A stretch of 64,000 bases of DNA from Planctomycetota bacterium (lineage in GTDB: Bacteria > Planctomycetota > Phycisphaerae > FEN-1346). The translations under genes and the position numbers were made by a program. A model generated the notes under the pieces. It did not search any database, had not been told where the DNA came from, and was given only the letters and a program-made list of their open reading frames with translations. The DNA lies in the NCBI GenBank assembly GCA_030602705.1, contig JAUVZF010000009.1:94-64093 (forward strand). The letters run 5' to 3'. This document shows positions 41,575-63,825 of the stretch, in pieces. Each line of letters begins with the position of its first letter. Position 1 is the first letter of the stretch.

Positions 41575-41623
41575 CGCTGTTCACCTCCGTTTCGCAAGGG
41601 CCGTCGGTCACCGCGGCGACCCG

Positions 41624-41735
41624 CCGCAAGGCCGTGCCTTTCAGTGGCGCCGCCCGCAAGCGGGCCGCAGTGTGCGGCACGAGCGGGGCATTATACACAC
41701 CATCGGCAATCGAGTGAAGGAAATGTAGCGAACAC
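41624..41735 (-). promoter_or_regulatory. ~112-bp conserved promoter/leader module, copy 1 (minus-strand sense: TTCACT-17-TATAAT then GC hairpin), immediately 5' of the HMGL-like gene
   Basis: ~95% identical to 43390..43501, which sits 5' of the BNR gene. Confidence 0.6.
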
Positions 41736-41819
41736 CCGACGATGATCGGCCCGGACCGGCAGCACCGGCCGCCGGGCGGAAAGGGGATGCGTTCTGAAGG
41801 CAGACCCGGCCGCTACGGA

Positions 41820-41929
41820 CTAAGCAGGAGCGAGAAAGTGTTTCCGAACAGCCGTAGCGCCGGGGTTTATCCCCGGCGTGGAACCGCCGTCGGCCTGACG
41901 GGCGGCCGCCCGTACGGGCGCTACAACCT
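41820..41929. repeat. 110-bp GGGGATAAACCCC MITE-like element, copy C (inverted relative to copy B)
   Basis: Reverse complement matches 9935..10044 at ~95%. Confidence 0.8.
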
Positions 41930-41968
41930 TGGGTCCACGCCAAGTCAGCCGCCGAATTCGGATTGACT

Positions 41969-43339: not shown

Positions 43340-43389
43340 CAGAGTTCCCCTGCCCGCCGCAAGTCGAACGCCGCCGGCCCGCCCGGCCG

Positions 43390-43501
43390 CCGCAAGGCCT
43401 TACCTTTCAGTGGCGCCGCCCGCAAGCGGGCCGCAGTGTGCGGCACGAGCGGAGCATTATACACACCATCGGCAATCGAGTGAAGGAAATGTAGCGAACA
43501 C
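43390..43501 (-). promoter_or_regulatory. ~112-bp conserved promoter/leader module, copy 2, immediately 5' of the BNR-repeat gene
   Basis: See copy 1 (41624..41735). Confidence 0.6.
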
Positions 43502-43522
43502 GGCCGCTGGGGGCCGGGCCCC

Positions 43523-45265: not shown

Positions 45266-45400
45266 CTGCGTGGCTCGGTTAGCACAGGGAACGATACGGT
45301 CTTGCGCGGCGGGTCTCCGTACCCGCCGCGCTGCAGCCAAACGCGGTGGGTCAGGAGACCCACCGCGCGAGTCTCGGTCCGAACTGCGGCCTCGCCGCGC

Positions 45401-46948
45401 TCACGACGCCGCCAGGTCGGCAAGCGACGCGCTGATCTGCTTCAGCGACGGGTAGACCTGCCGGTAGACCTCGAACCGCTCGGCGTACGTCTCGGCGAGA
45501 CGGGCGTTGGGCTCGTACACGGGGCCGGGTCTGCGGACCTTCTCGAAGGCGTGGAGTTCGTCGTTGTAGATGCCGACGCCGATGCCGGCGAGCATGGCGG
45601 CGCCGAGCGGCGTGGCCTCCTCAATCTGCGGCGCCTCGACCGGCACGCCGGACACGTCGGCCTTGTTCTGCATCCAGAACGTGTTGCGTGTGGCGCCGCC
45701 GACGGCAACGATGCGCTCGGCCGTCAGCCCCAGGCCGCCCTCGACGGCCCGGAGGATATCGAGGAACTGGTAATCGAGCCCCTCGAAGATGGCGCGGATC
45801 ATCTCTGCCTTCGTGGTCATGCTGCGAAGCCCGACGAACGCCCCGCGCGACTTCGGATCGACCACCGGACACGTGCTGCCCGAGAGGTGCGGCAGAAAGA
45901 GGAGCCCGCCCGCCCCCGGCGGCGCTTCCTTGGCCGCGCCGATGAGGTAGTCCCAGTCGGTCCCGCCTTCGGTTTCGTTCCGATGCGATTCCGCCAGGCC
46001 GTACTCCTTGCGGAACCATTCGAGGCACTCGCCCGCCGGCGTGCTCGCCCACGCCGCCCACGTGCCGCGAGCCACGTGCGCCTGGACCGTCAGGCCGGTC
46101 TGCCTCAGTTGCGGCGTCAGGACGGGCTCGGGCTTCGAGGCCGAGACGATCTCCCACGTGCCCGTCACGTCGAGGACGACGCCCGGCCGGAACGCCCCCA
46201 CGGGCAGGTTGCCGCACAGATGGTCGTGGCCTCCGAGGACCACGGGCGTGCCGGCGGGCAGGCCCGTCGCCCGGGCGGCGTCGGCGGTTACTTCGCCCAG
46301 CACGGTGGTGCTCGGATGGGCGTCGGGCATGAGGCGCCGGTCGATGCCGGCAAGACCCAGCAGTTCATCCGACCAGTCGAGCGTTTTCTGGTCGAAGAGC
46401 ATCATGCACGACGCCATGCTGTAGTCGGTGGCCCGGCGCCGGCAGAGCATGAAGTTCAGGAAGTCTTCGATGAGGAGCCATGTGGCGGTGCGCGCGAGAA
46501 TCTCAGGCTCGTTCTCGGCCATCCACCGTATCCTGAGCGCCGCGTTGATGGCCCAGACGGGGTTGCCGCCGATGGAGAACGTCTTCTCGGCCCCGATGTT
46601 GGCGAGCCACCACTGGAGTTGCGGCTGGGTGCGCGGGTCGAGCCAACTGATGAACGGGTACAGCCACGTGCCGTCTTCGGCGATGGGCACGCCGTCCATG
46701 CCCATGCCGGTGACGGCTACGGCCTTGATGCGGGCGGGGTCGTCGAGGCGGCCGACGGCTTCGCGGAGCGCTTCGGCGGTGCCGCCCCAGATTTGCTGCG
46801 GCTGCCACACGGTCCAGTCGGGATGGTCGGTGTCCGGGTTGAAGCGTTCGGTCGGCCGCGCGCCGCCGGCGACCGCGTTGCCGTCGGTATCGTAGATGAC
46901 GGCCTTCAGGCTGGTTGAGCCGAGGTCGATGCCGACCAGGTAGTCCAT
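45401..46948 (-). CDS. FGGY-family carbohydrate kinase (glycerol/xylulose/rhamnulose-kinase-like)
   Basis: MDYLVGIDLGSTSLKAV. Second actin-like domain VAVGGATRN. Confidence 0.8.
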   Translation of the reverse strand: MDYLVGIDLGSTSLKAVIYDTDGNAVAGGARPTERFNPDTDHPDWTVWQPQQIWGGTAEALREAVGRLDDPARIKAVAVTGMGMDGVPIAEDGTWLYPFISWLDPRTQPQLQWWLANIGAEKTFSIGGNPVWAINAALRIRWMAENEPEILARTATWLLIEDFLNFMLCRRRATDYSMASCMMLFDQKTLDWSDELLGLAGIDRRLMPDAHPSTTVLGEVTADAARATGLPAGTPVVLGGHDHLCGNLPVGAFRPGVVLDVTGTWEIVSASKPEPVLTPQLRQTGLTVQAHVARGTWAAWASTPAGECLEWFRKEYGLAESHRNETEGGTDWDYLIGAAKEAPPGAGGLLFLPHLSGSTCPVVDPKSRGAFVGLRSMTTKAEMIRAIFEGLDYQFLDILRAVEGGLGLTAERIVAVGGATRNTFWMQNKADVSGVPVEAPQIEEATPLGAAMLAGIGVGIYNDELHAFEKVRRPGPVYEPNARLAETYAERFEVYRQVYPSLKQISASLADLAAS

Positions 46949-46957
46949 CGTTTCACC

Positions 46958-47117
46958 GTACCTGTTTAGCGTGCTCTCGAAGCGATGTCATTTCGACCGA
47001 GGCCGTACGGCCGAGCGGAGAAATCTCATCGTCCGCACACGCGTAACGGCGATCCCGGCGCGCCGGGACTCGACTCGCTTCGCTCGCTCGGAATGACACG
47101 CTAAACATAAACACGTA
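46958..47117 (+). mobile_element. MITE (GTACCTGTTTAGCGTG family) copy 2, 160 bp, 8-bp TSD GTTTCACC
   Basis: TSD at 46950-46957 and 47118-47125. Confidence 0.9.
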
Positions 47118-47127
47118 CGTTTCACCT

Positions 47128-48165
47128 TTACAGGGCCAGGGGATACCGGCCGTACGCCTTGAGCGTCTCGAGCATGGCCGCGTAGTTCTCGGGCCGGATG
47201 GAGGAGTGAATCGAGTTGCTCGACGAGAGGATATAGCCGCCGCCGGGGGCGCCTTGGCGGAGCGCCTCTTTCGTCGCCTCGGCGACCTCGTCGGTGGCGC
47301 CGTACACGAGTACCTCCGCACAGTCCACGTTGCCCTTGAGGGCCACGCGGTCGCCGAACCTGGCCTTGACCTGGGCCAGGTCCATGCCGCCCTGGGGGTC
47401 GATCGGGTCGAGGCAACTTATTCCGGCCTCGATCATCATGTCGATGATGGGCCGGATATTGCCGTCGCAGTGCTTGATGAACGGCAACCCCAGTTCCTTG
47501 AAGCCCGCCGCCACACGCTTCAGGCCCGGGTAGAAGAGCGTCCGGAAATGGCCCGGCGACATGAACGGCCCGGTGTTGCCGGCGTAATCGTCGCCGGTCC
47601 AGACGAAATCGGCGCCGCGCTTGGCCACCTCCCGTGCCATCTCCAGATTGATCGCCACCGACAGGGCGACGAGGGCCGTCACCAGGTCGGGCTCGGCGGC
47701 GATGGCCATGAGCAGGTTCTCCATGCCCGTCAGGTACCGCGGGATGGAGAACACGTCGTTCAGGTGAACGCCGATGGCCATCTTGCCTTTGAACTCGGCC
47801 ACGGCCTCTTCGACCGAGTCGTAGCGGCCGGGGGCGTGCGGGTCGGGCGGCGTGTAACGCTGGAAGTCGTCCATCGTCCGGATGGGCGAAGCCACCTCCA
47901 CGCCGTGCTCCTCCCTGCCGTACTCCACGACGTACCCCCACTCGGTCCGCCAGCGGTCGGGGCCGACCTGTTCCTTCGTGTAGTCGGGCGCCACGAGTAT
48001 CGCGTCGTGGCCCATGCGTACGGCGAAGTCGTTGTGGGATGTGCAGCCGGGGCAGACGGCCTCGCGCACGTTTTTGGCGATGAGCCACTCGAAGTGGGGG
48101 ACGCGGTCGGGTTCTTCGCGGCGAAGGACGCGCATGACCCGCTCGGCGCTGGTCAGTTCGGCCAT
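47128..48165 (-). CDS. uroporphyrinogen-decarboxylase (URO-D) family protein (MtaA/CmuA-like methyltransferase fold)
   Basis: 345 aa. LRREEPDRVP...GISCLDPIDP is typical of URO-D-like methyltransferases. Confidence 0.65.
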   Translation of the reverse strand: MAELTSAERVMRVLRREEPDRVPHFEWLIAKNVREAVCPGCTSHNDFAVRMGHDAILVAPDYTKEQVGPDRWRTEWGYVVEYGREEHGVEVASPIRTMDDFQRYTPPDPHAPGRYDSVEEAVAEFKGKMAIGVHLNDVFSIPRYLTGMENLLMAIAAEPDLVTALVALSVAINLEMAREVAKRGADFVWTGDDYAGNTGPFMSPGHFRTLFYPGLKRVAAGFKELGLPFIKHCDGNIRPIIDMMIEAGISCLDPIDPQGGMDLAQVKARFGDRVALKGNVDCAEVLVYGATDEVAEATKEALRQGAPGGGYILSSSNSIHSSIRPENYAAMLETLKAYGRYPLAL

Positions 48166-48171
48166 GGGGCA

Positions 48172-49323
48172 CTACTCTCCCGCGAGGTCCTCGTGCGAAC
48201 TCTCTGCGACGTGTGCCAAAGCGGATTCCACAGGCTCGCCGACCCGTTGTGGCGCAGCGGCCGCGACCTGGGCCGGGCGGCTTTCGCGCATGTGGTTGCC
48301 CTTGGCCATGATGCACACGCCGATGATCAGGATGGCGATGCCGGCGACGATCCAGGTGATGCTCTTGCGGCTGGCCCCCTTCCACTCGCCCGTGCGGAAC
48401 CCGTGGATGTTGCCGACGATGATCGCAAACGACATGAAGGCCGCGTAGCCGACCGAGATGCCCAGTTTGCCCAGGCCGATGTAGCCCAGGCCGAAGAAGA
48501 AGATCGCCCCGTCGTGCAAGAAAGCCATGATCAGCGCCAGCACCAGGAGCATGCCGACGCCGGGCTTGCCGAAGTTCTTCCAGGTCTTGTTCTTCACGAG
48601 CAGCACCACGCAGTAGCCGAACGACGAGAGGGCCCCGCCCCACAGGATGAGCGCCGTCACGACAAAGGCCGCACGCCACGGCGGGTTGCCGAAATCGTTC
48701 CGGGCGATCCCCAGGACCGGCCCGGCGTAACTTGCCGCCACGGCGTAGCAGGCACACAGGATGCCCGAGACGACGCCGATCACAAGGCCGATGAGCATCT
48801 TCGGCTTCTTCGTCGCCGTTTGCACCTCGTGGGTCTGGTGCTCGTTCTTCTTCAGGCTCCGCTCCTTGAGGATGCCGGCCCGCCCGGCGACGATCACACC
48901 GAGCAGGCAGACGGCCACGCCCGCCAGGATCACGTAGCCGTGAGGCGTGAGCACCTCGTCGGCATTGTGCAGGAGCATCGGCGCCATCGACCCGAACATG
49001 ATCTGTGCGCCGTAGTTGAGGGCGTAGGCCAGCGAGAGGCCGATGAAGGCGAAACTCATGCCCAGCGTCATCGACCCCAGGCCCCAGAGGAAACCGAAGA
49101 CGAGCGGCAGGATGAGAACGCTCAACCCGGCGGCCGAGTAGATGGTGTAGAAGTCCTTCACAATCATCGGCCCCAGCGTCACGGGAATCAGCACCGTCAC
49201 GAACAGGAAGAACGGTCCCCACAGGTTCTCCCAGGGCGTGTCCTTCTTCACGAACTTGCTCGGCAGGCCGAACGACCCGCCGCAGATCGCACCCAGAAGT
49301 ACGAAGAGGAATCCCAGGATCAT
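48172..49323 (-). CDS. L-rhamnose/H+ symporter-family (RhaT) sugar transporter
   Basis: 10-TM profile with two homologous halves; resembles the RhaT family by recall. Confidence 0.6.
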   Translation of the reverse strand: MILGFLFVLLGAICGGSFGLPSKFVKKDTPWENLWGPFFLFVTVLIPVTLGPMIVKDFYTIYSAAGLSVLILPLVFGFLWGLGSMTLGMSFAFIGLSLAYALNYGAQIMFGSMAPMLLHNADEVLTPHGYVILAGVAVCLLGVIVAGRAGILKERSLKKNEHQTHEVQTATKKPKMLIGLVIGVVSGILCACYAVAASYAGPVLGIARNDFGNPPWRAAFVVTALILWGGALSSFGYCVVLLVKNKTWKNFGKPGVGMLLVLALIMAFLHDGAIFFFGLGYIGLGKLGISVGYAAFMSFAIIVGNIHGFRTGEWKGASRKSITWIVAGIAILIIGVCIMAKGNHMRESRPAQVAAAAPQRVGEPVESALAHVAESSHEDLAGE

Positions 49324-52299: not shown

Positions 52300-52419
52300 A
52301 CGCCGCGGGTGGGGCCGCAGTACCAGGTCGCCGGCCGTATCGCGGGACTGAAACTCTACCGGCGTGCCCTGTCGGTGGAGGAAGCCGCCGCAGCCTTCAA
52401 GGCGGAGAAAGCGCCTTGA
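52300..52419 (+). pseudogene. remnant of a LamG/concanavalin-like domain C-terminus (...GRIAGLKLYRRALSVEEAAAAFKAEKAP*)
   Basis: Short in-frame segment with a LamG-tail-like sequence and no upstream ORF. Confidence 0.3.
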
Positions 52420-52511
52420 CAGGGGGCCGATTTGGGTGTACGGTACATGTAGCCATTGTGGGGATAGGCAGTTCTTTTGACCCTTGGTCGCCGGAGGGCG
52501 GAAGGAACGCC

Positions 52512-53306
52512 ATGCCCCGAATTACCCCCCTTTTGCTGGTTCCGGTTGTGTGCGCAGTATGCGTCTCGCCGGCCTCGGGCACGCTCTTTCTTGAGGACAC
52601 GTTCGACGGGACCGGTCCGCTGGACCCGCTGAAATGGACGGTCACCGAAAGCGCGGCCTGCGTTAGCGTGGGCCGGGTCGGCGGGGTGGCGCAGATGAGC
52701 CTGACGGAGGACTGTGTCGTCCATGACTACGGCCAGGCGATGAGCGTTGACGACTGGACGCCGCCGGCGGTCGGCAGCCTAGACTGGTCCGCCGATTTCC
52801 GAAAGAGCAGTATCGGGGCCGACAAGCCGATGCTGGAGCCGCTGCGCTTCGAGAGTCCTGCCGGCAGCATCAGCGTCTGCCTCATCTACGGGTCGATGCA
52901 CGCCGTGCTGTACATCTTTGAGGACGACGGCTCGATCGGGACCACGGTGGCGCTGCGGGACGCGCCGGTGACGGGCAACCTGTTCGAACCCGGAACCGGG
53001 AACAACTACTGGCAGTATCTGTCGGTGGACCTGGCGGCAGAGGACGTGTCGGCCACGCTCAGCGGCACGCACGACGGTGAGGACTACGAGCAGTACTGCG
53101 CGACCGTGACGGACTACACGAACTACTTCGACCTGGAGAAGTCCCGGCAAGGGAACTTCGGAATGTTGACCGAGGCGAAGGTGCAGGGCGGGATTGCCCA
53201 GGCGGCTGAGTTCGACAACGTGCTGTTGACGCCGGAACCGGCGACGGCCGTGCTGATAGGCCTTGGCGGACTCATCGTGGGCCTTGCCCGCCGCCGGGCG
53301 GCGTAG
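52512..53306 (+). CDS. PEP-CTERM sorting-signal protein 2
   Basis: SD GGAAGGAA. Signal peptide. C-terminus PEPATAVLIGLGGLIVGLARRRAA. Confidence 0.85.
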   Translation: MPRITPLLLVPVVCAVCVSPASGTLFLEDTFDGTGPLDPLKWTVTESAACVSVGRVGGVAQMSLTEDCVVHDYGQAMSVDDWTPPAVGSLDWSADFRKSSIGADKPMLEPLRFESPAGSISVCLIYGSMHAVLYIFEDDGSIGTTVALRDAPVTGNLFEPGTGNNYWQYLSVDLAAEDVSATLSGTHDGEDYEQYCATVTDYTNYFDLEKSRQGNFGMLTEAKVQGGIAQAAEFDNVLLTPEPATAVLIGLGGLIVGLARRRAA

Positions 53307-53392: not shown

Positions 53393-54253
53393 TTAATCGT
53401 GCTGGGTCGCGGCACCGGCGGCAACGGGCTCGGCCTGTTTGGTCTTTCGGACGATTGTGAAGAAGAGTTTGACCAGGTCGGGATCAAACTGCTTGCCGGC
53501 GTTGACCTCGATCTCGGCCAGTGCCTCCGGCGAGGTCATGGCGCCGCGATACGGCCGGTCGGAGGTCATGGCGTCGTAGGCGTCGACGATGGCCAGGATG
53601 CGTGCGCCAATCGGTATCTCGTCTCCCTTCAGTCCGTTGGGGTAGCCCTGACCGTCGTATCGCTCGTGGTGGCTGAGGATGATGCGGCGTGCGCCGTCGA
53701 GAAAGGCGAGGTGCCGGACGATCTTGGCGCCGCGTTCGCAGTGCATCCGCATGAGGGCGAACTCTTCGGGGTCGAGGCGTCCGGGCTTGTCGATCACCCA
53801 TTCCGGGACGGCGATCTTGCCGATGTCGTGCAGCGCAGCCGCCCGCGCGACCTCCGTGAGTTCGTTTGCTTTCAGGCCGGCCAGCGTCGCCAAGCGGACC
53901 GCCAGTTCCATAACGCGGTCGGTGTGGCCGCGCGTGTAATTGTCCTTGGCCTCGACGGTCTCCATGAGGCTGGCCATGGTGTTGACGTAGTGCTGCTCGA
54001 TGGCCTCGCGGTCTTTGAGTCCGCCGATGGTGACGGCGGCGGCGTCGCTCGTGTCGGAATCCCCGTTCTTGCGCTGGAATCGCGGTGCTCTACTGGGCTC
54101 GCTGCCGGGAACCAGCCTGACGTTGCCGCATATCGCTGGCGGAGTACGGCAGTTGGGCGCAAGGTTCCGGGTGGGATGCTGAGAAATGGCGATCTTGCCC
54201 GGAGAAGCGGCATCGAGGGCCGACATCCCGATGACCGTTGGTCGGCGCCGCAA
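53393..54253 (-). CDS. HD-GYP domain protein (c-di-GMP phosphodiesterase family)
   Basis: HDIGK ... HHERYDGQGYPNGL. Start uncertain. Confidence 0.8.
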   Translation of the reverse strand: MRRRPTVIGMSALDAASPGKIAISQHPTRNLAPNCRTPPAICGNVRLVPGSEPSRAPRFQRKNGDSDTSDAAAVTIGGLKDREAIEQHYVNTMASLMETVEAKDNYTRGHTDRVMELAVRLATLAGLKANELTEVARAAALHDIGKIAVPEWVIDKPGRLDPEEFALMRMHCERGAKIVRHLAFLDGARRIILSHHERYDGQGYPNGLKGDEIPIGARILAIVDAYDAMTSDRPYRGAMTSPEALAEIEVNAGKQFDPDLVKLFFTIVRKTKQAEPVAAGAATQHD

Positions 54254-54352: not shown

Positions 54353-56062
54353 GTGTGGCACCGGCGCACCTGCGGCATGCACCTTCCCCTAAGGTGCGAA
54401 GGCGTGAGTCTGCCGCACGAAACAGCCGAACAGGGCGATCCGGCCAACGGCCCGCCGTCTGCGCAGGCCGAGAAAGGGGCTCAGGGCGCCCCCGCCGCCG
54501 TGGCCGAGCACGACCCGGCAGCCACCGAAGAACTGATCTCCCAACTCGGTCTGGAACCGGACATGGTGGGGGGTCACGCCGTTGACCCGGGGGTCGTCCA
54601 TCTCCTGCCCGAGGGCCTGGTCCGCGAGCACCTGGCCATCCCCGTTTGTATGAAGGCCGGGGTCCTGGTCCTGGCAACCTGCTGTGACACCGACCTCGCC
54701 CTGCTCGACCAGATCGAACTCATGACCGGCCACCGCGTGGAGCCGGTCCAGGTGAGCGAGAAGGAGATCCGGCGTACCATCGAACGGTACTTCACCGTCG
54801 ACCGCAGTTTTGCGGAAGGTCTCAGCGACGTGACCGGCGGCGAAAACAGCGACGCCGCAGGGCCGGTCGTCTCCCTGAACGAGCGGCTCGGGGCCCGCCG
54901 CGCCGCGCCGGCCGTACGCTTGGTTGATTCCATCCTGCGAGGAGCCGCACGACGCGGCGCCAGCGACATTCACATCGAGCCCCTCGCGAACGAACTGCTC
55001 GTCCGGTACCGCATCGACGGGGTACTGCACGACATGATGCGCGTGCCGAACAACATTCAGGAAGAGGTGGTCTCGCGCGTCAAACTCATCTCGGCGCTTG
55101 ACATCACCGAGCACCGCGCGCCGCAGGACGGCCGCATCAGCATTCGCATGGAGTCCTCTGACTTCGACATGCGTGTCTCGACGCTGCTGACGGTCGAGGG
55201 CGAGAAGATTGCCATCCGGCTGCTGAACAAGTCGTCCGCCAGTCTGGGCCTCCGCCAGTTGGGCATGCCCGACGAGCAGCGAGACCTGTTCGCCAAACTC
55301 ATCACCCGGCCTTACGGCATGATCCTGCTGGCAGGGCCGACCGGCAGCGGCAAAACCACCACGCTCTACGCGGCCCTGCGGGAAGTGGACTGCAAGCACC
55401 TCAACGTGACCACCATCGAGGACCCCGTCGAGTATTCCTTCGACCTCGTGAACCAGATCCAGGTCAACCCGGCGGTGGGCTTGACGTTTGCGGGGTCGCT
55501 CCGGACGGTTCTGCGGCAGGACCCGGACATCATCATGGTCGGCGAGATTCGCGACACCGAGACGGCTCGCCTCGCCGTCCAGGCCGCCATGACGGGGCAC
55601 CTGGTGTTCTCAACGCTCCACGCCAACGATTCCCCGAGCGTCATGGACCGCCTCAAGGACCTGGGCGTTCCGCCGTTTCTGATCGTCTCGACCCTGGTGG
55701 CGGCGATCACACAGCGTCTGGTGCGGCGGGTTTGCCCGGAGTGTGCCGAGACCTACCAGCCCCCGGAGGAACTCGTGGCCGGAACCGGCCTGGAAGGCAT
55801 CGAACTCAAACACGGTCGCGGGTGCGACATGTGCATGGACACGGGATACCGCGGACGCATGGGCATGTTCGAGATCTTCCCGGTGACCGAGGCCGTTCGC
55901 GAGACGTTCGTGCAGGGCGCCTCCAGCGACGCGCTGAGGACCCTGGGCCGCGAGACCGGCATGATCACCATGCGTGATTCCGCCATCGAGGCCGTCCGCA
56001 ACGGCCACACGACCATCGAGGAACTTCGCCGCATTCTGCCTGCTGAGGATATTGAATCGTGA
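54353..56062 (+). CDS. gspE: T2SS/T4P assembly ATPase (GspE/PilB family) with N-terminal GspE_N domain
   Basis: Walker A GPTGSGKTTT, Asp box and His box. A tetracysteine CPEC...CDMC is also present. Confidence 0.9.
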   Translation: MWHRRTCGMHLPLRCEGVSLPHETAEQGDPANGPPSAQAEKGAQGAPAAVAEHDPAATEELISQLGLEPDMVGGHAVDPGVVHLLPEGLVREHLAIPVCMKAGVLVLATCCDTDLALLDQIELMTGHRVEPVQVSEKEIRRTIERYFTVDRSFAEGLSDVTGGENSDAAGPVVSLNERLGARRAAPAVRLVDSILRGAARRGASDIHIEPLANELLVRYRIDGVLHDMMRVPNNIQEEVVSRVKLISALDITEHRAPQDGRISIRMESSDFDMRVSTLLTVEGEKIAIRLLNKSSASLGLRQLGMPDEQRDLFAKLITRPYGMILLAGPTGSGKTTTLYAALREVDCKHLNVTTIEDPVEYSFDLVNQIQVNPAVGLTFAGSLRTVLRQDPDIIMVGEIRDTETARLAVQAAMTGHLVFSTLHANDSPSVMDRLKDLGVPPFLIVSTLVAAITQRLVRRVCPECAETYQPPEELVAGTGLEGIELKHGRGCDMCMDTGYRGRMGMFEIFPVTEAVRETFVQGASSDALRTLGRETGMITMRDSAIEAVRNGHTTIEELRRILPAEDIES

Positions 56063-57228
56063 GCACCGACGTTCTGGAAAAACCGAAACCTGCCGGACGG
56101 GCCGCCCGAACCGGCCCGGGCGCCAAACCGCCTGCGCGCGGCGGCGGGCCGCCCAAGGACTCCAAGGGCGGCGGCTTCCTTTGGAAGTCTCGCGTCAGCG
56201 AAGGCGCCCTGGTGCCGCTGTGCCGGCACCTTGCGGCCCTGGTGGGCAGCGGCATCAGCCTGACGGAATGCCTGAGGACGTTCGCCGAGGAGACGCCGCC
56301 CGGCACGCTGCGCCGGGTCCTGGCCGACATTATCAACGACATCGAGGCGGGGCGCAAACTCTCCGTGGCCCTTGAGCGGCACCCGGAGCATTTCTCGCCG
56401 TATTTCCGGGCGTCGATCTGGGCCGGCGAGGAAAGCGGCCAGATGCCCGAAACCCTCGACCGCCTCGCCTGCTACCTCGAAAGCAAGCAGGAGACCAGGC
56501 AGAAGATCCGCAACGCCTTCGCGTACCCGATTACGCTGATCGTGGTCATCGTCGGCGTCGTCTCGTTCCTGCTCCTGTACGTGGTTCCGGTCTTCGCGAA
56601 CGTGTACCAGCGGATGGGCGTAGGCCTGCCGCTTCCGACGCAGGTGCTGGTCGATTTCAGCGACCTGCTCATTACGTCGCCGTGGGTCCTGGCTCTGCTG
56701 GTTGGCGGCTTCATCGGGCTGCTTGCCTGGATCCGGAAGAGCCCCGCCGGACGCTTGTGGTTCGACCGGTGGAAGATCCGTGTTCCGATCGTCGGCCCGC
56801 TGCTCAAGAAGATGGTTCTCTACCGCTTCATGCGCTCCTTCGGCGAGATCATGGGCGCGGGCATCCTGGTCCTGAAGGCGCTGGACCTGGCGGGCCAGGT
56901 CACCGGCAACGAGGCCTTCATCCAGTCGCTGGGACCGGTGCGGGCGGACATTCAGCGCGGCACGGGTCTGACGGGACCGCTGCGGCGGACGGGCTGGTTC
57001 TCCCCGTCGCTTCTTCAGGTGATATCGAGCGGCGAGCAGTCCGGGCGCGTGTCCGAGTTGATGGGCCGCGCTGCCGATATCCTGAGCCGCGACGTCGACC
57101 TGACGCTGAAACGCGTCGTCGGACGGATCGAGCCGCTGCTGACGGTCGCCATGGCCCTCATCGTCGGGCTCGTCCTGTTGGCCGTGTATCTGCCGATGTT
57201 CGACGTCATGCAGCACGTAGGTAAGTGA
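56059..57228 (+). CDS. gspF: T2SS/T4P inner-membrane platform protein (GspF/PilC family)
   Basis: Two GspF repeats with three TM segments. Overlaps gspE by 4 nt. Confidence 0.85.
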   Translation: MSTDVLEKPKPAGRAARTGPGAKPPARGGGPPKDSKGGGFLWKSRVSEGALVPLCRHLAALVGSGISLTECLRTFAEETPPGTLRRVLADIINDIEAGRKLSVALERHPEHFSPYFRASIWAGEESGQMPETLDRLACYLESKQETRQKIRNAFAYPITLIVVIVGVVSFLLLYVVPVFANVYQRMGVGLPLPTQVLVDFSDLLITSPWVLALLVGGFIGLLAWIRKSPAGRLWFDRWKIRVPIVGPLLKKMVLYRFMRSFGEIMGAGILVLKALDLAGQVTGNEAFIQSLGPVRADIQRGTGLTGPLRRTGWFSPSLLQVISSGEQSGRVSELMGRAADILSRDVDLTLKRVVGRIEPLLTVAMALIVGLVLLAVYLPMFDVMQHVGK

Positions 57229-57303
57229 TGGTTCGCCCTGGCCGCGCAACGGGCGCCAGCGGGGCATGCACAGAGGAGCATGGAGTTGAAAGGAGTTGTC
57301 AGA

Positions 57304-57632
57304 TGTCCAGGAAGAGAGGTTTTACGCTGATTGAGTTGTTGCTGGTGGTTGTCATCCTGGGGCTCTTGGCTGCTGTGGCCATCCCCCGGCTGGCTGCTTC
57401 TGGGAGTGATGCGAAGAAGAATACCTGCAAGTCCAACATCGCGCTCATCAACTCCCAGATCGAACTGTGGTCCGTCAGCCACGACGGGGTGTATCCGGCC
57501 GACGCAACCGAGTTCAACGCCAACATCCTGAACAACACGGATATCTTCCCCGACGGCCCGCCGGTCTGTGGTTACGGCACCGCCTACACCTACGACACGA
57601 GTACCAAGCGTGTCGAGCCGCACAGCCACTAA
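57304..57632 (+). CDS. major pseudopilin/pilin, copy 1 (prepilin leader ...KRG|FTLIELL)
   Basis: Class III signal. Two Cys. 109 aa. Confidence 0.85.
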
Positions 57633-57789
57633 CCGCGCGTCGGCGCGGTCAATGGCGGACCACCAGTAGCCGTCCTGGCGTTGGATTGAGGGCGGAGGCT
57701 CGTGTTTTGGTACGCAACGAGGCGGCGTGCCCCCGGCCAAGTGGGGTACGCAGCCAGGCAAACTGGTCGCATTTGAAGGAGGACGCGCT

Positions 57790-58125
57790 ATGCCACGGCA
57801 TAGGAATAAGGGCTTTACCCTGATTGAGTTGCTGCTGGTGGTGGTCATACTCGGACTCTTGGCCGCCGTGGCCATTCCGAGGCTGGCCGCCTCTGCGAGT
57901 GATGCGAAGAAGAATACCTGCAAGTCCAACATCGCGCTCATCAACTCCCAGATCGAACTGTGGTCCGTCAACCACGACGGGGTGTATCCGGCCGACGCAA
58001 CCGAGTTCGGCACGAACATCCTGAACAATACGGATATCTTCCCCGACGGCCCGCCGGTCTGTGGTTACGGCACCGCCTACACCTACGACCCGAGTACCAA
58101 GCGTGTCGAGCCGCACAGCCATTAA
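57790..58125 (+). CDS. major pseudopilin/pilin, copy 2
   Basis: ~95% identical to copy 1. Confidence 0.85.
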   Translation: MPRHRNKGFTLIELLLVVVILGLLAAVAIPRLAASASDAKKNTCKSNIALINSQIELWSVNHDGVYPADATEFGTNILNNTDIFPDGPPVCGYGTAYTYDPSTKRVEPHSH

Positions 58126-58283
58126 CCGTGCTTCGCCGCGGTCAATGGCGGACCTGGAGTCGGCGCCCTGGCCTCAGATTGAGGGCGGAGGCTCGTGTTT
58201 TGGCCACGCAACGAGGCGATACGCCTCGGGCGGACTAGTGTGCGCACGCAAGTAGCCCCGGCTCATGCGAAGGAGGGCGGACG

Positions 58284-58619
58284 ATGCACATGCACAGAAA
58301 GAGGGGCTTTACCCTGATTGAGTTGCTGCTGGTGGTGGTCATCCTCGGACTCCTGGCCGCCGTGGCCATTCCGAGGCTGGCCGCCTCTGGGAGTGATGCG
58401 AAGAAGAACACCTGCAAGTCCAACATCGCGCTCATCAACTCCCAGATCGAACTGTGGTCCGTCAACCATGACGGGGTGTATCCGCCCAACGCGGGCCAGT
58501 TCAACACCAACATCATGAACAATACGGATATCTTCCCCGACGGCCCGCCCGTCTGTGGTTACGGCACCGCCTACACCTACGACACGAGCACCAAACGCGT
58601 CGAGCCGCACAGCCACTAA
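58284..58619 (+). CDS. major pseudopilin/pilin, copy 3
   Basis: ~92% identical to copy 1. Substitutions cluster in YP(A/P)(D/N)A(T/G)(E/Q)F(N/G)(A/T)NI(L/M). Confidence 0.85.
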   Translation: MHMHRKRGFTLIELLLVVVILGLLAAVAIPRLAASGSDAKKNTCKSNIALINSQIELWSVNHDGVYPPNAGQFNTNIMNNTDIFPDGPPVCGYGTAYTYDTSTKRVEPHSH

Positions 58620-58752
58620 CCGCGCGCGGGCGCGGCTGGCGGACCAGGCAAGACGGATGACCGCGTCTGACGGGTCGAATCAGGTGCCGGAGGAAAGATC
58701 GGTGTGCGGAATGTACGGCCGTCGTGAGAGCGTCGCGGACAGTGTGAGCAGG

Positions 58753-59238
58753 ATGGCGCGGGCGCGCTGGCGCTGGCGGCGTGCTCCGGCCGGCGTCACG
58801 CTCATTGAGTTGCTGGCGGTGGTCGTGATGCTCGGCCTGCTGGCGGCGGTTGCGCTGCCCCGGCTGGCCGGGGCCAACCTCTGGATGGCCGAGGGAGAGG
58901 CCGCCGCCTGCAAGTGTGCCGCCACGCTCCGCCTGGCACGGCGTATGGCCGTCGAGAACGCCCCTGACAATCCGCTGGGGTACATGGTCGTGTGTACGCA
59001 AGGGTCGTACCGGATCGTTGACCCCAAGGCGCCGGAGGCCGGCGAGGTGATCGCGCTGGCCGACGGGTGGCAGTTTGACAGGAGCGACTACGTGGTGCTG
59101 CTCGACCCATACGGCGGCGCCCGGCCGGCAGTGGGGCTGCCGGACGAACTTGTCATCCGCAAGGGTACCTACAGGTGGATTATCCACCTCGAGCCGGCCA
59201 CCGGGTACGTGTGGTACGAGCAGGGCGAGGAAAGTTAG
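58753..59238 (+). CDS. minor pseudopilin (GspH-like)
   Basis: RRAPAG|VTLIELLAVVVMLGLLAA. Confidence 0.65.
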   Translation: MARARWRWRRAPAGVTLIELLAVVVMLGLLAAVALPRLAGANLWMAEGEAAACKCAATLRLARRMAVENAPDNPLGYMVVCTQGSYRIVDPKAPEAGEVIALADGWQFDRSDYVVLLDPYGGARPAVGLPDELVIRKGTYRWIIHLEPATGYVWYEQGEES

Positions 59239-59637
59239 GTGCGCTACGCAAGGCGACATCACAGGGGCCTGACCCTGCTGGAACTGCTGCTGGCGGCGGC
59301 ACTGCTGGCCGCGTGCGCCGTGCCGATCGTCGAGGGCACGACCTATGCCCTGGACCTCGCGTATCAAATCGAAACGCGAACACGGGCCACGCTGCTCGCG
59401 CAGCAGGAGATGGAGGCCGCCATGGCCATCGCAGCCGAGGACTTCGACCGGAGCCTCTGGAAGGACTCCGAGGACCTGGGCGACGCCTTCCTCGTCACGA
59501 TCTCGGGCATCCGCGCCGACCTGCGCAAGACCTTTACCGTCGAGGTCGGCCGCGATGCGAACCGCAACGCCCAACTCGACGCCGACGAAGTCCTCGTCGC
59601 GTTTGTGACGCGCGTTGCGGACATGACGACCTACTAG
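59239..59637 (+). CDS. minor pseudopilin (GspI-like)
   Basis: HRG|LTLLELLLAAALLA. 132 aa. Confidence 0.65.
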   Translation: MRYARRHHRGLTLLELLLAAALLAACAVPIVEGTTYALDLAYQIETRTRATLLAQQEMEAAMAIAAEDFDRSLWKDSEDLGDAFLVTISGIRADLRKTFTVEVGRDANRNAQLDADEVLVAFVTRVADMTTY

Positions 59638-59641
59638 CAAG

Positions 59642-61126
59642 GTGGTGGTAACCGTGGTGACGGACACGACGGCCCGAACGCGGCATGGCCGGCGCGGGTG
59701 GACGTTGCTTGAGTGTCTGCTCGTGGTGGCCATTATGGCGATGGTCTTCGCGGCGACCGTGCCGCTCCTGCGTTCCGAGACGATGGCGCTGGATACGGCC
59801 CGGCCGATGATCCTCAAGGCCCAGGAGACCCGGTACGCCCTGGCCCGCGTGGCGGCGGCCCTGCGGCAGGCGCGGGCCGTGACCCAGGTCACCGACGGTG
59901 GAGGGCCCGCTGCTTCAATGACGTTCCTTGCCGGCGACGGCACGCTGACGACGTTCCAGCGAGACGCCGCCTCAGACGAAGTGCGGTACGGCGCGACCGG
60001 GTCGGAGGCCGTCCTCGCGAAGAACTGCACCGGCCTGGCGATCACCTGTTTCGCCGCCGACGGGCAGGTGCTTCCACCGGTGCCTATGAGCCTCGCAAAG
60101 ACCGCCGGTGTCTCTATCGCCATGACGGTCGTGGACCCGCACGGCAAGAGTGGGCCGACGACCGTGGCGACCCTGGCCGCCCTTGCTCGCACCAGGCCCA
60201 CCGTCCTCATCAACGAGATCATGTACAAGCCGCCTGGCAGTTACGGCGCCAAGGACAAACACCAGTGGGTCGAACTCCACAACCCGACCCCCGACGCCAT
60301 CGACGTGCGGGACTGGCTTCTCTGGACCAAGGACCAGAACGACCCCGATGTCATCGGCCCGGACGCCTACCACGGTACCGGCACGACGGTCATCCCGCCC
60401 GGCGGCTACGCCGTTATCACCGACAAGGACACCAACCTCTACAACGAGGTCCTCGAGAACGGCGATTTCGAGAGTGGCAACATGGGCGATTGGCACTTCT
60501 CCTCGGGCGACTGGTCGCGCGATTTCGGCAGTGCCGCTTCCCGCGACTACAAGGTCACGCTGGAGGGCATTGGTTGGACCACGATGTACCAGGATTTCAA
60601 GATTCCCGCCGGCGCCGACGGCGACGTGCGGCTGACGGTGCGGGAACGGTACAATCCGAGTTTCGACAGGCCGAGTGTCAGAATCCGCATCACGAATCGC
60701 AGCGGCGGTGTCTTACTTACCGTCTACGACGGCAACTGCCACTCCCACTCTGACTGGACGGCACACTCCGCCGACCTGACGGTCTTCAAGGGCGTGGACG
60801 CGCGGCTCGAAATCAGCGGCTATCGGAGCAATTACTTCAGAAGTTACGTGCATGTCGATGCCGCCACGATCAACTGGGGGCCCGTCTCGTGGAACTGCGT
60901 TCGGCTTCAGGTGGACGACAACGAGATCGGCAAAAACCTCGAGGACAAGCAGGTCTTCCTCGGCGAAGGCAACGGCCTGCATGACGCCGTCGTTTTTGAG
61001 AAACAGTGGGGCGGCGATGACGACGGATGTTCCCTCAGCCGCACGAGCCCCTTCGACCCCGCGACGGAAGAGGAGTCCTGGGGTCCGGCGGCCGACGGAG
61101 GAACGCCCGGAGAGCCGAACTCATGA
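59642..61126 (+). CDS. large prepilin-like protein (GspJ position) with C-terminal lamin-tail-domain (LTD)-like module
   Basis: RRG|WTLLECLLVVAI. LINEIMYKPPG...HQWVELHNPTPDAIDVRDWLLW, an LTD-type motif. Confidence 0.7.
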   Translation: MVVTVVTDTTARTRHGRRGWTLLECLLVVAIMAMVFAATVPLLRSETMALDTARPMILKAQETRYALARVAAALRQARAVTQVTDGGGPAASMTFLAGDGTLTTFQRDAASDEVRYGATGSEAVLAKNCTGLAITCFAADGQVLPPVPMSLAKTAGVSIAMTVVDPHGKSGPTTVATLAALARTRPTVLINEIMYKPPGSYGAKDKHQWVELHNPTPDAIDVRDWLLWTKDQNDPDVIGPDAYHGTGTTVIPPGGYAVITDKDTNLYNEVLENGDFESGNMGDWHFSSGDWSRDFGSAASRDYKVTLEGIGWTTMYQDFKIPAGADGDVRLTVRERYNPSFDRPSVRIRITNRSGGVLLTVYDGNCHSHSDWTAHSADLTVFKGVDARLEISGYRSNYFRSYVHVDAATINWGPVSWNCVRLQVDDNEIGKNLEDKQVFLGEGNGLHDAVVFEKQWGGDDDGCSLSRTSPFDPATEEESWGPAADGGTPGEPNS

Positions 61127-61689
61127 GCGGTTATTCTGCACGAAATCCGGGGCGGACGAGGGGGTCCGAGGAGAACTGCTTCGCGTGTGAGCGCGGCCCG
61201 TACGGGCCGCGACAGTCGCGTCGAAGACGCGGTGGTTGCGGAGAACCACCGCGCAACACTCAGGTCGCGCCCCTTAGCAGACGCGGCGTTGCCCTGGTCC
61301 TCGTGATCTTTGCCATCGCCTTTATCACGGTCCTGGCCGTGGCGATGCTCGACGAGGCGACCCTCGACCTGGCGATCCTGCGGAACCACACCAGCGGTCT
61401 GAGGGCCCTCTACGCCGCCAACGCCGGCATCTCGGAGGCCATCGTCGCGCTGCGCGAAGAGTACGACACCACCAACACCGTCGCGGGGACACTGACGCTG
61501 CCGGGCGGCTCGACCGCCACCTTCTCGGCCGAGATCGACAACGACAAGCCGGTCGTGACGGTCACGTCAACGGGCCAGGCCGACGGGTTCACACGCCAGA
61601 TGACGGCCCGGCTTGTCGTCGGGCAGCCCGACGCCTGTGAGGAGCCGTATCCGGTCCGCGTCGTCTGGTGGCGCGAGGCAGCGGAGTGA
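61123..61689 (+). CDS. minor pseudopilin (GspK-like; start uncertain)
   Basis: RRGVALVLVIFAIAFITVLAVAML. A GGCCCGTACGGGCC palindrome lies within the putative 5' end. Confidence 0.55.
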   Translation: MSGYSARNPGRTRGSEENCFACERGPYGPRQSRRRRGGCGEPPRNTQVAPLSRRGVALVLVIFAIAFITVLAVAMLDEATLDLAILRNHTSGLRALYAANAGISEAIVALREEYDTTNTVAGTLTLPGGSTATFSAEIDNDKPVVTVTSTGQADGFTRQMTARLVVGQPDACEEPYPVRVVWWREAAE

Positions 61690-61733: not shown

Positions 61734-63251
61734 ATGGCGGTACGGACGGCAGTTGGCATCACGTTGGACGCCGGCACCCTCCACGCCGTTGAATTGGCGA
61801 CCGACGGCGAGGCCGTGGTGATCCGGCGTGCCGTCTGCGACCAACTCCCGCCGGGGGCGTTCGCCGACGGTGGGCTGACCGACGCGAACGCCGTGGCGGA
61901 GACCGTCCGGCAGGTCCTGCGTGCCAACCACATGCCCCGCCGCAACCTCTGTGTGGCCCTCGGCGGGAAACTGGCCATTGCACGCGTCATCGAAGCCAGC
62001 GCCTCCGGCGCCGAGGTCCAGCACGTCCTTCAGGAACGCATCAGCCGATACGCCATCTACGAGGACCTCGACGTCCTCTGGAAGGCGACGCCGCTCGAGA
62101 CCGGAGAGGGCGACAAGCGGGCGTTCCTGGCGGCCGCAGTCTCCAGGGACGAAGTCGCCACGCTCCTGCCGGCGCTCAGGCGAGTCGGCGTCCGCGTCTC
62201 GCATGTCGAGCCGTACGCCCTGGCTGCCATCCGTAGCCTGGCCACGTGTGCGGCCGGGCAGGAGCAGCCGACGATCCTGATGATTCTGCGAAACGAGTCT
62301 ACCGATTTCGTGATCGTCAAGGGGTCCTGGCCGCTGTTGGTCCGGTCGGTGGACGAGGGGGCGTGCGAACTGGCCCGCCGCCCGGAGAAGATCGAAGACC
62401 TGCTGATCGAGGCCCGCCGCTCGGTGGACTTCTGCAAGAGCCGCTTCGACGGCGCCCAGCCGCGCCTCTGGGTCAGCGTCGCCGCGTGCGAGGATCCCGT
62501 GGTGGCCAGGGGATTGCTCGCGTGCGTCAAACGGGACGTTGCGGCGGAGGTCGAAGCCTTGCCGGAGTGGCCGGAGGTGACCCCCGGCGCCAGCGTGGAC
62601 GAGTACGGCCGCCAGTCCTGGGCCGCCATCGGCGCCGCCATGATTGCCCTGGGCCGCGACGAAATCACGCCGCACCTGAACCTGGTGCCCGACGAGTGGC
62701 CGGCCGTCGAGACGGTTCAGAAGCAACTGATGGGCTTGGCCGCCTCAGTGGTCGCGGCGGTCGTTGCGATGGTGATCGCGTCGATGATGATCCGGATGAG
62801 CGCGGGGGATGTGGCCAAAGCGGCTCAGGCGGCCTCCGTTCGGATGCAGGCCCACACAGTCAGCGTTAGGGCCGCCTCGGAACTGAAGCGGCAAGCGGCG
62901 GAGGCGGCGGCACGCGTCAAACTCTGGAAAGACGTCCGGGCCACGATACGGCCGACGGACTGGACGGCCGCCCTCGAGGCCATCACCGGGCAGATTCCCG
63001 AGGGCGTCCGCGTCCGAGAGATCACCTGCCGGCGCGGCGTGCTTCGCCTCGCCGGGGAAACCCAGGTCACGGACCTGGTGCACCAGGTGGTCGAGCGGCT
63101 GAATCGGCTGCCCTGTCTCGAAGAGGCCAGCATCGAGCGGCTGGTTCGGGCCGCGGGCCTCGATGCTCAGTTGCCGGAATACGTCATCACCTGCCGGTTG
63201 CGCGAGCAGCAACCCGCGCAGCCGGAGAAGGATAAGAAGGATGCTCGTTGA
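61734..63251 (+). CDS. GspL-like / PilM-PilN fusion (actin-like cytoplasmic domain + TM + periplasmic domain)
   Basis: ASKBHA-type N-terminal half. TM helix AASVVAAVVAMVIASMMI. Confidence 0.7.
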   Translation: MAVRTAVGITLDAGTLHAVELATDGEAVVIRRAVCDQLPPGAFADGGLTDANAVAETVRQVLRANHMPRRNLCVALGGKLAIARVIEASASGAEVQHVLQERISRYAIYEDLDVLWKATPLETGEGDKRAFLAAAVSRDEVATLLPALRRVGVRVSHVEPYALAAIRSLATCAAGQEQPTILMILRNESTDFVIVKGSWPLLVRSVDEGACELARRPEKIEDLLIEARRSVDFCKSRFDGAQPRLWVSVAACEDPVVARGLLACVKRDVAAEVEALPEWPEVTPGASVDEYGRQSWAAIGAAMIALGRDEITPHLNLVPDEWPAVETVQKQLMGLAASVVAAVVAMVIASMMIRMSAGDVAKAAQAASVRMQAHTVSVRAASELKRQAAEAAARVKLWKDVRATIRPTDWTAALEAITGQIPEGVRVREITCRRGVLRLAGETQVTDLVHQVVERLNRLPCLEEASIERLVRAAGLDAQLPEYVITCRLREQQPAQPEKDKKDAR

Positions 63252-63825
63252 ATTCCTGGTTAAACGGGCGGTCCGTGAGCGGTATGCTCTGGGCGCAGCC
63301 ATTGTCGTGCTTGCCATCGTGGGCTGCTACACCGCGGGGATCCGCCCCGCGATGGACGCCGCAGAGGGGCACGAGGGGAACCTTCGGACAACCGAGAAGG
63401 TGCTCATGCTTCAGCAACGCCAACTGAACCTGCTGCAGGCCGAAACCAAAGCCAGCCAGAAGATGCTGGATCAGCTCAAGGACTTGCCGTGTCCGTGGGT
63501 GCAGGCCGACAAGGCCGACGTCGTCCTCCAGGAACTCCAGAAGGAGGCCGAGGCCCTTGGCTTGTCGGTCCGCTCGGTTGTTCGCGAGTCGCTCACCGGG
63601 ATGCGTCTGAAAGACGCGCCGCGGCCGGTGTCGCGGCTGCTGGTCCGTCTGGAACTCGACGGACCGTATGCGAGTGTCATGGAGATGTTCCGCCGCCTCA
63701 GCAAGGGCGACCTTGCCGTCGGGTTAGAGGAACTCTCACTCAAGGGAAACGACGAGCCGCCGTTCGACGTGAAGGTCGTGCTCCGCTTGCGGATGCCCGT
63801 CGTGGAAGGGGACGATCATGATTAG
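63241..63825 (+). CDS. GspM/PilO-like inner-membrane assembly protein
   Basis: Single N-terminal TM helix then a coiled coil. Overlaps the upstream gene. Confidence 0.6.
   Translation: MLVEFLVKRAVRERYALGAAIVVLAIVGCYTAGIRPAMDAAEGHEGNLRTTEKVLMLQQRQLNLLQAETKASQKMLDQLKDLPCPWVQADKADVVLQELQKEAEALGLSVRSVVRESLTGMRLKDAPRPVSRLLVRLELDGPYASVMEMFRRLSKGDLAVGLEELSLKGNDEPPFDVKVVLRLRMPVVEGDDHD

Follow-up and report, generated by a model that had tools for sequence, protein, structure and literature searches.

The DNA considered here is a 64,000-nucleotide stretch (the window, to which all coordinates refer) of contig JAUVZF010000009.1, from a Planctomycetota bacterium of the class Phycisphaerae (GCA_030602705.1). 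Towards its 3' end lies an operon for a type IV filament machine resembling a type II secretion system (T2SS). Within this operon, between genes for an I-like and a K-like minor pseudopilin, the open reading frame (ORF) at 59642-61126 on the forward strand encodes a 494-residue protein, the target of this analysis, in which a pilin is fused to a lamin tail domain (LTD; a domain presumed to be Ig-like) that is itself interrupted by a β-jelly-roll. The gene starts with GTG, 5 nt 3' of the stop codon of the I-like gene, and at 61123 its TGA stop codon and the ATG start of the following gene overlap in the sequence ATGA. The GC content at third codon positions (GC3) is 0.84, similar to that of the adjoining genes. 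A chance ORF, or a chance resemblance to the LTD, was considered and ruled out by this GC3, by 53 full-length homologues and by conserved synteny. From 5' to 3' the gene encodes:

59642-59698 (+), class III (prepilin) leader peptide, residues 1-19, ending at Gly −1 (RHGRRG/W, where the slash separates Gly −1 from residue +1); from the sequence and TIGR02532.
59699-60190 (+), pilin module of predicted GspJ fold, residues 20-183, a helix and a β-sheet head; from AlphaFold2 and Foldseek.
60191-60439 (+), N-terminal half of the LTD, residues 184-266 (INE...WVELxN...GGYAVIT); from the match to PF00932 and an orthologue alignment.
60440-60892 (+), nested β-jelly-roll of the carbohydrate-binding module (CBM) 4/9/16/22/61 type, residues 267-417 (NGDFE...W...VDAA); from Foldseek and a weak match to CBM_4_9.
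60893-61126 (+), C-terminal half of the LTD with a conserved tail, residues 418-494, and the stop codon; from homology to the orthologue P0215.

A preliminary description of this ORF had read it as a pseudopilin in the GspJ position, with a prepilin N-terminus and an LTD-like C-terminal module. Its coordinates are correct, and the motif that it quoted, RRG/WTLLECLL, lies at residues 17-27 with Gly at −1 and Glu at +5. The N-terminus as a whole, RHGRRG/WTLLECLLVVAIMAMVFAA, consists of a basic leader followed by a hydrophobic helix and scores 18.5 bits against TIGR02532 (cut-off 16.3), in agreement with the prepilin assignment, while the Pfam model N_methyl gives 17 bits, under its cut-off of 21.2. 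In one alignment of the family (A2), Gly −1 is conserved at 90% or more and Glu5 is invariant; in another (A1), conservation of Glu5 is 90% or more. The mature part that follows the leader is about 475 residues long, rather than the ~430 first described. No prepilin peptidase gene was found within the 64-kb window.

The AlphaFold2 model of the pilin module has the lollipop fold of a pilin, with a long N-terminal α-helix (residues 22-75) on an antiparallel β-sheet (strands within residues 79-180). When the module was modelled alone (residues 20-186), the predicted local distance difference test (pLDDT) was 88.2, and in a Foldseek search of the PDB its top 17 matches, each at a probability of 1.00, were exclusively to XcpW, EpsJ or GspJ (E from 1.5e-4 to 1.8e-2; template-modelling (TM) scores of 0.44-0.59). 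They include the GspJ of the GspK-I-J complex 3ci0 and the XcpGHIJK filament model, and the match that follows them has a probability of only 0.18. These GspJ-only matches argue that the module has, as modelled, the GspJ fold in addition to the GspJ position; the structure prediction that had been proposed for this protein and the gene order both uphold its earlier placement. The protein resembles GspJ, XcpW and EpsJ (3ci0_J, 3nje, 2ret, 5vtm) in its prepilin leader with Glu5, in its pilin fold and in its gene slot between I-like and K-like genes in an E-F-G-H-I-J-K-L-M operon, but the classical GspJ is without the ~310 extra C-terminal residues that make up the LTD and the nested jelly-roll. 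One distant relative of the pilin head carries the source name PulJ. A profile search against PDB sequences found pilin N-terminal helices only, with non-significant matches to CBMs and lamins. Neither the target nor its relatives reached the cut-off of any NCBIfam family, and membership of the 'Verru_Chthon cassette protein C' family was rejected, the matches being limited to the N-terminal helix.

The LTD claim had been made to depend on a Pfam profile search, which returned a significant match to PF00932 (E = 8e-12; 45.9 bits, cut-off 34.3). Since the same profile is also matched by 37 of 37 aligned family members, the resemblance is not due to chance. The stretch originally cited for it, LINEIMYKPPG...HQWVELHNPTPDAIDVRDWLLWTKD, lies at residues 189-232. 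The match is not to a contiguous domain: it spans only positions 4-85 of the 109 in the profile, and a weak match to CBM_4_9 begins where it stops. In the family alignment the LTD hallmark motifs flank a block of about 150 residues beginning NGDFE, and the C-terminal half carries the motif VRLxVDD...WGGDxDGxSLSR...W...GTPGxPN. The insert-less orthologue P0215 (337 residues; locus L018, Sedimentisphaerales) aligns in two parts, its residues 12-253 with residues 17-266 of the target and its residues 259-336 with 418-493, and between these parts lie 5 residues in P0215 against 151 in the target. The LTD of P0215 matches the Pfam profile end to end (positions 6-108 of 109, 63.4 bits), and it is by homology to this protein that the C-terminal half in the target is identified as LTD. 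With the insert spliced out in silico the match still covered only positions 4-87 of 109, because the C-terminal half in the clade of the target is too diverged for the profile. Residues 267-417 are a jelly-roll nested in a loop of the LTD. Of the module first described, the LTD itself stands, but not as a simple domain, as the 151-residue jelly-roll interrupts it. Eight residues of the C-terminal half are invariant in alignment A1 (W456, G458, G462, R467, W480, G487, T488 and N493).

The full-length AlphaFold2 model has a mean pLDDT of 81.7, rising to about 90 over residues 220-440, and Foldseek matched it compactly, over ~150 columns, to carbohydrate-binding modules. The insert matched CBM16 (2zex; TM score to the matched structure 0.72), CBM61 (2xom; 0.75), a porphyran CBM (8xmz; 0.72), CBM22 (0.63), CBM4-2 (0.60) and the sugar-binding domain of Fbs1; the matches to CBM16, CBM61, CBM22 and CBM4-2 were all at a probability of 1.00. 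With CBM4/9, CBM16, CBM22 and CBM61 the insert shares the β-jelly-roll fold (TM scores 0.60-0.75), the N-terminal NGxFE and the C-terminal D motif; it differs from them in falling below the Pfam cut-off and in being nested within a domain rather than placed in series with an enzyme. Its Trp positions 284, 291, 312 and 372 are at least 80% conserved, with W284 and W372 invariant, and there are other conserved aromatic positions. Mean column identity is highest in the LTD halves and the N-terminal helix (0.54-0.58) and lowest in the jelly-roll (0.41), where identity between subclades falls to 21-25%. Modules like the insert (NGDFE...W...Y[IL]DD) also recur as tandem repeats in giant surface proteins.

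The architecture is widely shared. The 53 full-length homologues, which came from a first homology search, are 40-84% identical to the target and all have the LTD. In a scan of loci (one genome per species), 18 loci encode a relative that aligns over most of the protein, down to 28% identity; they come from metagenome-assembled genomes (MAGs) labelled Phycisphaerae, Sedimentisphaerales or Planctomycetota. Wherever the locus is long enough, the order E-F-G(1-3)-H-I-target-K-PilMN-M is kept. A homologous operon is present in Omnitrophota (locus L061) and in a divergent member (L064). The LTD, which the preliminary description had suggested looking for in other Planctomycetota pseudopilins, recurs in the homologous operons of the phylum, and in both Planctomycetota and Omnitrophota the fusion is a real, conserved feature. 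It had also been called unusual for a T2SS-type locus; this holds against the textbook proteobacterial T2SS, but in the homologous planctomycetal and Omnitrophota operons the fusion is the rule. Copies of the target that are 42-81% identical, in the same operon order, occur at five loci labelled 'uncultured Anaerolineales bacterium' (L001, L002, L004, L009 and L010). Other close contigs are labelled Phycisphaerae, which conflicts with these labels, and the Anaerolineales labels are suspect because the L009 contig encodes a secretin.

An exhaustive profile search covering 1.84 billion representatives separated two classes, one with the insert (~8 representatives, 450-513 residues) and one of insert-less pilin-LTD fusions (at least 13 representatives, 331-377 residues). 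With the insert-less profile, more than 120 clusters came up at E < 1e-20, Omnitrophota included. The recovered Omnitrophota proteins carry the NCBI name 'lamin tail domain-containing protein' and the JGI names PulG, PilE or PilV. Some family members have an insert that scores as a MAM domain, and in a sister set Laminin_G_3 takes the place of the LTD on the same J-type head. A Planctomycetes MAG (L063, 5585-11369) has three tandem pairs, each of a J-like protein with Laminin_G_3 (620, 401 and 394 residues) and a small K-like protein, with PilMN-M-secretin genes after the pairs. Across both phyla, the J position acts like a display site whose modules can be swapped. A homology search with the pilin head only, limited by its word index, gave 14 proteins and is not a full catalogue of the attached modules. 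The variant P0085 (758 residues) has a far larger, cysteine-rich insert at the same loop of the LTD and an added aspartate-rich C-terminal extension of ~200 residues. Among the members of alignment A1, Pfam N_methyl is reached at E ≤ 0.01 by only 9 of 37, although the motif G/[WF]T[LI][LI]E is clear in all that are full-length (a few sequences are N-terminally truncated). As the target also lies below the cut-off, surveys based on this signature probably undercount the family.

The remaining genes of the operon, all on the forward strand, are:

54353-56062 (+), assembly ATPase of the GspE/PilB type with an MshEN domain (Pfam T2SSE, E = 1.4e-122).
56059-57228 (+), platform protein of the GspF/PilC type (Pfam T2SSF, E = 1.4e-55).
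57225-58619 (+), three tandem G-like major pseudopilins, ORFs 57225-57632, 57727-58125 and 58284-58619 (N_methyl, GspG).
58555-59238 (+), H-like minor pseudopilin, ORF as listed (prepilin motif at residues 76-101).
59239-59637 (+), I-like minor pseudopilin of 132 residues (NCBIfam gspI the best model, E = 9.4e-4, below cut-off).
61123-61689 (+), small K-like minor pseudopilin whose ATG overlaps the stop codon of the target (N-terminal region of NCBIfam GspK, E = 8.2e-7).
61734-63251 (+), GspL-like PilM-PilN fusion (Pfam PilM_2 at residues 8-172, PilN at residues 414-489).
63163-63825 (+), GspM/PilO-like protein (Pfam T2SSM, 27.6 bits, just under the cut-off of 27.8).

The three G-like genes score 35-37 bits each against Pfam N_methyl, and GspG is the best NCBIfam model for two of them (46 bits for 58284-58619 and 45.7 bits for 57225-57632); the true starts of the first two ORFs are probably internal. 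The three genes are visibly very similar to one another. Related loci have one to three G-like copies, so copy number changes fast. The real start of the H-like gene is probably near 58753 (MARARWRWRRAPAG/VTLIELL); tblastn matches in distant loci begin at residues 50-81 of the ORF, and the syntenic gene in Omnitrophota (L061) matches Pfam GspH. The I-like gene is syntenic in every related locus. For the K-like gene, distant loci match only from residues 56-86 onward. K-like proteins have ~130-190 residues against the 307 positions of the GspK model, and the K-like partner of the target is much smaller than the GspK of proteobacterial T2SSs. The PilM-PilN fusion, which is the arrangement of GspL, matches NCBIfam pilM at E = 3.3e-16. 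On longer related contigs the operon ends with a GspC-like gene, whose match to GspC_delta is weak, and a secretin; in L009 the order is GspM/PilO-like gene, GspC-like ORF, secretin, the last with 523 residues.

All NCBIfam scores for the core of the machine are below their cut-offs: 532 bits for GspE against 531 for PilB in the ATPase, 305.6 for GspF against 229 for PilC in the platform protein, and 229 for PilQ against 222 for GspD in the secretin. No gene for a retraction ATPase (PilT) was found in the operon or the 64-kb window. The layout leans towards a T2SS, with GspF scoring above PilC, with C-, L- and M-like genes and with no PilT nearby. Directly upstream, a divergent gene of the HD-GYP type (HD_5; 53393-54253, −) adjoins the ATPase gene, whose MshEN domain matches positions 13-85 of the Pfam profile. 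Genes for a PAS-histidine kinase and for two or three single-domain response regulators stand before the operon in Omnitrophota and other relatives (L061, 256-3217, where the kinase has a GGDEF domain; L064, 1-2739). Such neighbours suggest, tentatively, that a second messenger or a two-component system regulates the machine.

We propose that the target is the GspJ equivalent, a minor pseudopilin, of the T2SS-like type IV filament machine of this Phycisphaerae-type planctomycete, and consider it reasonably probable, though well short of secure, that a J-type tip subunit with an LTD stalk holds a ligand-binding, likely glycan-binding, jelly-roll at the filament tip. If the solved complexes GspI-J-K and XcpVWX are a guide, the protein would be put by its pilin module into the I-J-K complex, which primes and caps the filament. 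The acidic LTD, joined to the pilin head by a short conserved linker, could act as a rigid stalk or scaffold, and the fast-evolving jelly-roll in its surface loop as the specificity element, most plausibly for glycans. The filament tip could then bind a polysaccharide or a surface, or hold cargo. Because the K-like partner is small, we infer that the J-borne module is the most exposed element of the tip. The most conserved parts being the LTD halves and the most variable the insert, the protein has the pattern of a scaffold bearing a specificity module, and the range of modules on the J head (LTD, LTD with a jelly-roll that is sometimes scored as MAM, or Laminin_G_3, and the tandem pairs of L063) is what one would see of an effector module on display. 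Glycan binding is made plausible by the jelly-roll fold, by the conserved Trp and other aromatic residues, and by the lectin-type replacements in sister operons.

Several points weigh against this proposal. The predicted TM score of the full-length model is 0.63, so that the orientation of the domains is uncertain. The GspJ sequence model TIGR01711 gives the target 12.1 bits against a cut-off of 64.85, over the N-terminal helix only. Pfam CBM_4_9 (PF02018) scores 15.0 bits on the full protein and 18.6 bits (E = 0.0025) on the insert alone, both under the cut-off of 25.9, and is reached at E < 0.01 by only 6 of 37 family members; a protein may have a CBM-like fold without binding sugar. The profile scores of the machine do not separate a T2SS from type IV pili. 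Classical T2SS pseudopili stay in the periplasm, and if this filament is confined there too, 'adhesin' would be the wrong word and a periplasmic role would apply.

Such a role is the substance of one alternative, in which the LTD and jelly-roll on the GspJ of a true T2SS act as a periplasmic cargo adaptor, recognising exoproteins pushed through the secretin; the candidates would be glycosylated or LTD- or CBM-bearing enzymes rather than an external substrate. The T2SS-like layout described above speaks for it, and so does the view that in proteobacterial T2SSs it is the tip complex that meets the substrates. Among the matches, giant secreted proteins built of LTD and NGDFE jelly-roll repeats are also abundant, so the two folds are common in exported proteins. 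However, no substrate gene is linked to the operon within the window, and modules that diverge fast and are swapped (LTD, MAM-like, Laminin_G_3) suit environmental ligands better than a conserved secretion signal. We regard a cargo adaptor as unlikely, if worth keeping in mind.

A purely structural module, binding nothing specific and serving, as a stopper or spacer, to set the length of the pseudopilus or to plug the secretin channel, would suit the very small K-like cap, with the bulk of the tip coming from J instead, and giant surface proteins often contain the LTD in repeats as a scaffold. Yet module-less J-like relatives of 198-286 residues exist, from which it follows that the machine does not require such bulk, and the lectin-type replacements (Laminin_G_3, MAM-like, CBM-like) together with the conserved Trp and aromatic positions point to binding, which leaves a structural role improbable. 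Least probable by our estimate is a DNA receptor serving uptake or capture in the manner of the minor pilins ComP and ComZ: DNA-binding tip pilins are known (PMC8179133), the nuclease ExeM has an LTD at its N-terminus whose deletion lowers DNA degradation in vitro (PMC6085458), and one insert-less member weakly matches the ExeM model over the LTD (E = 0.0014), but the LTD is strongly acidic across the family (net charge −17 in the target, a family mean of −11 with an isoelectric point of ~4.4, and −22 to −29 in most insert-less members), in vivo ExeM does not need its LTD to degrade extracellular DNA (PMC6085458), and no competence genes lie nearby in the window.

The operon that Planctomycetota and Omnitrophota share (E-F-G-H-I-J-K-L-M-(C)-D) may, instead of being a classical T2SS confined to the periplasm, build an extended fibre at whose tip J, with its LTD stalk and an interchangeable lectin-type head (CBM-like, MAM-like or Laminin_G_3), captures polysaccharides. 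On Planctopirus and Gemmata, gold-labelled dextran binds pili-like fibres that have been speculated to serve in the uptake of macromolecules (Boedeker et al., 2017; PMC5394234). That the operon encodes such fibres is a speculative and rather unlikely suggestion, since Planctopirus and Gemmata belong to a different class and the gold label lies along the fibres generally and not at their tips alone.

The closest precedents come from the modular pilins, of which more than 1,200 in 264 architectures have been catalogued (Raynaud et al., 2021; PMC8179133). The target is a modular pilin in the sense of that work, sharing with the others a pilin carrier, a short linker and a domain that is not specific to type IV filaments. 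Functional precedent is given by PilB, with a vWA domain, and PilC, with a lectin domain, of Streptococcus sanguinis (PMC8179133). Here, unlike in these, the carrier belongs to a diderm and is the J-type tip pseudopilin encoded by a T2SS-like operon. Dataset S1 of the same survey lists, without discussing it, the architecture IPR012902-IPR001322 (pilin and LTD), with six proteins and one variant (PMC8179133), and the target departs from this plain architecture in that its LTD itself hosts a nested domain. The PilY1/PilC tip adhesins of type IVa pili offer a functional analogy, with a large ligand-binding module on a minor-pilin tip complex (PMC8179133); PilY1, however, is a separate, non-pilin β-propeller that docks on the tip, whereas the module of the target is covalently fused to J, and the two have no sequence or fold relationship. 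ExeM shares PF00932 with the target, but its LTD is N-terminal to nuclease domains (PMC6085458), while in the target a pilin precedes the LTD and a jelly-roll splits it. Literature searches found nothing that pairs the lamin tail domain with a pilin, a pseudopilin, Planctomycetes/Planctomycetota or Omnitrophota, and a 2025 review of the phylum makes no mention of T2SSs or type IV pili. The modular-pilin concept was known already and the pilin-LTD architecture had been listed; the J-type tip carrier in a conserved T2SS-like operon and the LTD hosting a nested CBM-like domain are new. The swappable J display site in two phyla is new as well, and so is a family that is probably much larger than signature surveys suggest.

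Minor pseudopilins of T2SS-like machines are usually seen as small structural subunits. Here a whole clade of machines, in Planctomycetota and Omnitrophota, has made the J subunit a carrier of interchangeable lectin-type modules. Both phyla are environmentally abundant, poorly cultured and linked to polysaccharide degradation. An exposed, glycan-binding module, if that is what it is, would offer a testable handle on the attachment to, or capture of, polymers, in a single gene with clear domain boundaries; it would also bear on what makes up the fibres that bind dextran in planctomycetes. Given the weak pilin signature of most members and names that refer to the LTD only, most of the family probably escapes architecture surveys and annotation pipelines.

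Elsewhere in the window, three large paralogues contain the 'hydrazine synthase alpha middle domain' (PF18582; 3500-6817, 31333-33717 and 49567-52281, all +), two of them also with PD40 repeats and one of those two with a cytochrome c motif; the three copies within 64 kb are without an anammox gene context in the window. About 1 kb upstream of the pseudopilus operon, a 296-residue protein (52416-53306, +) ends in a PEP-CTERM-like sorting motif (TPEPATAVLIGLGGLIVGLARRR), with 19.6 bits against the Pfam cut-off of 20.7. Also upstream of the operon lies a sugar-utilisation block on the reverse strand (40624-49323, −) with genes for a RhaT-type rhamnose transporter, an FGGY kinase, a glycerol-3-phosphate-oxidase-like DAO protein, a BNR_4 protein and an HMGL-like lyase, among which there is a URO-D-like gene.

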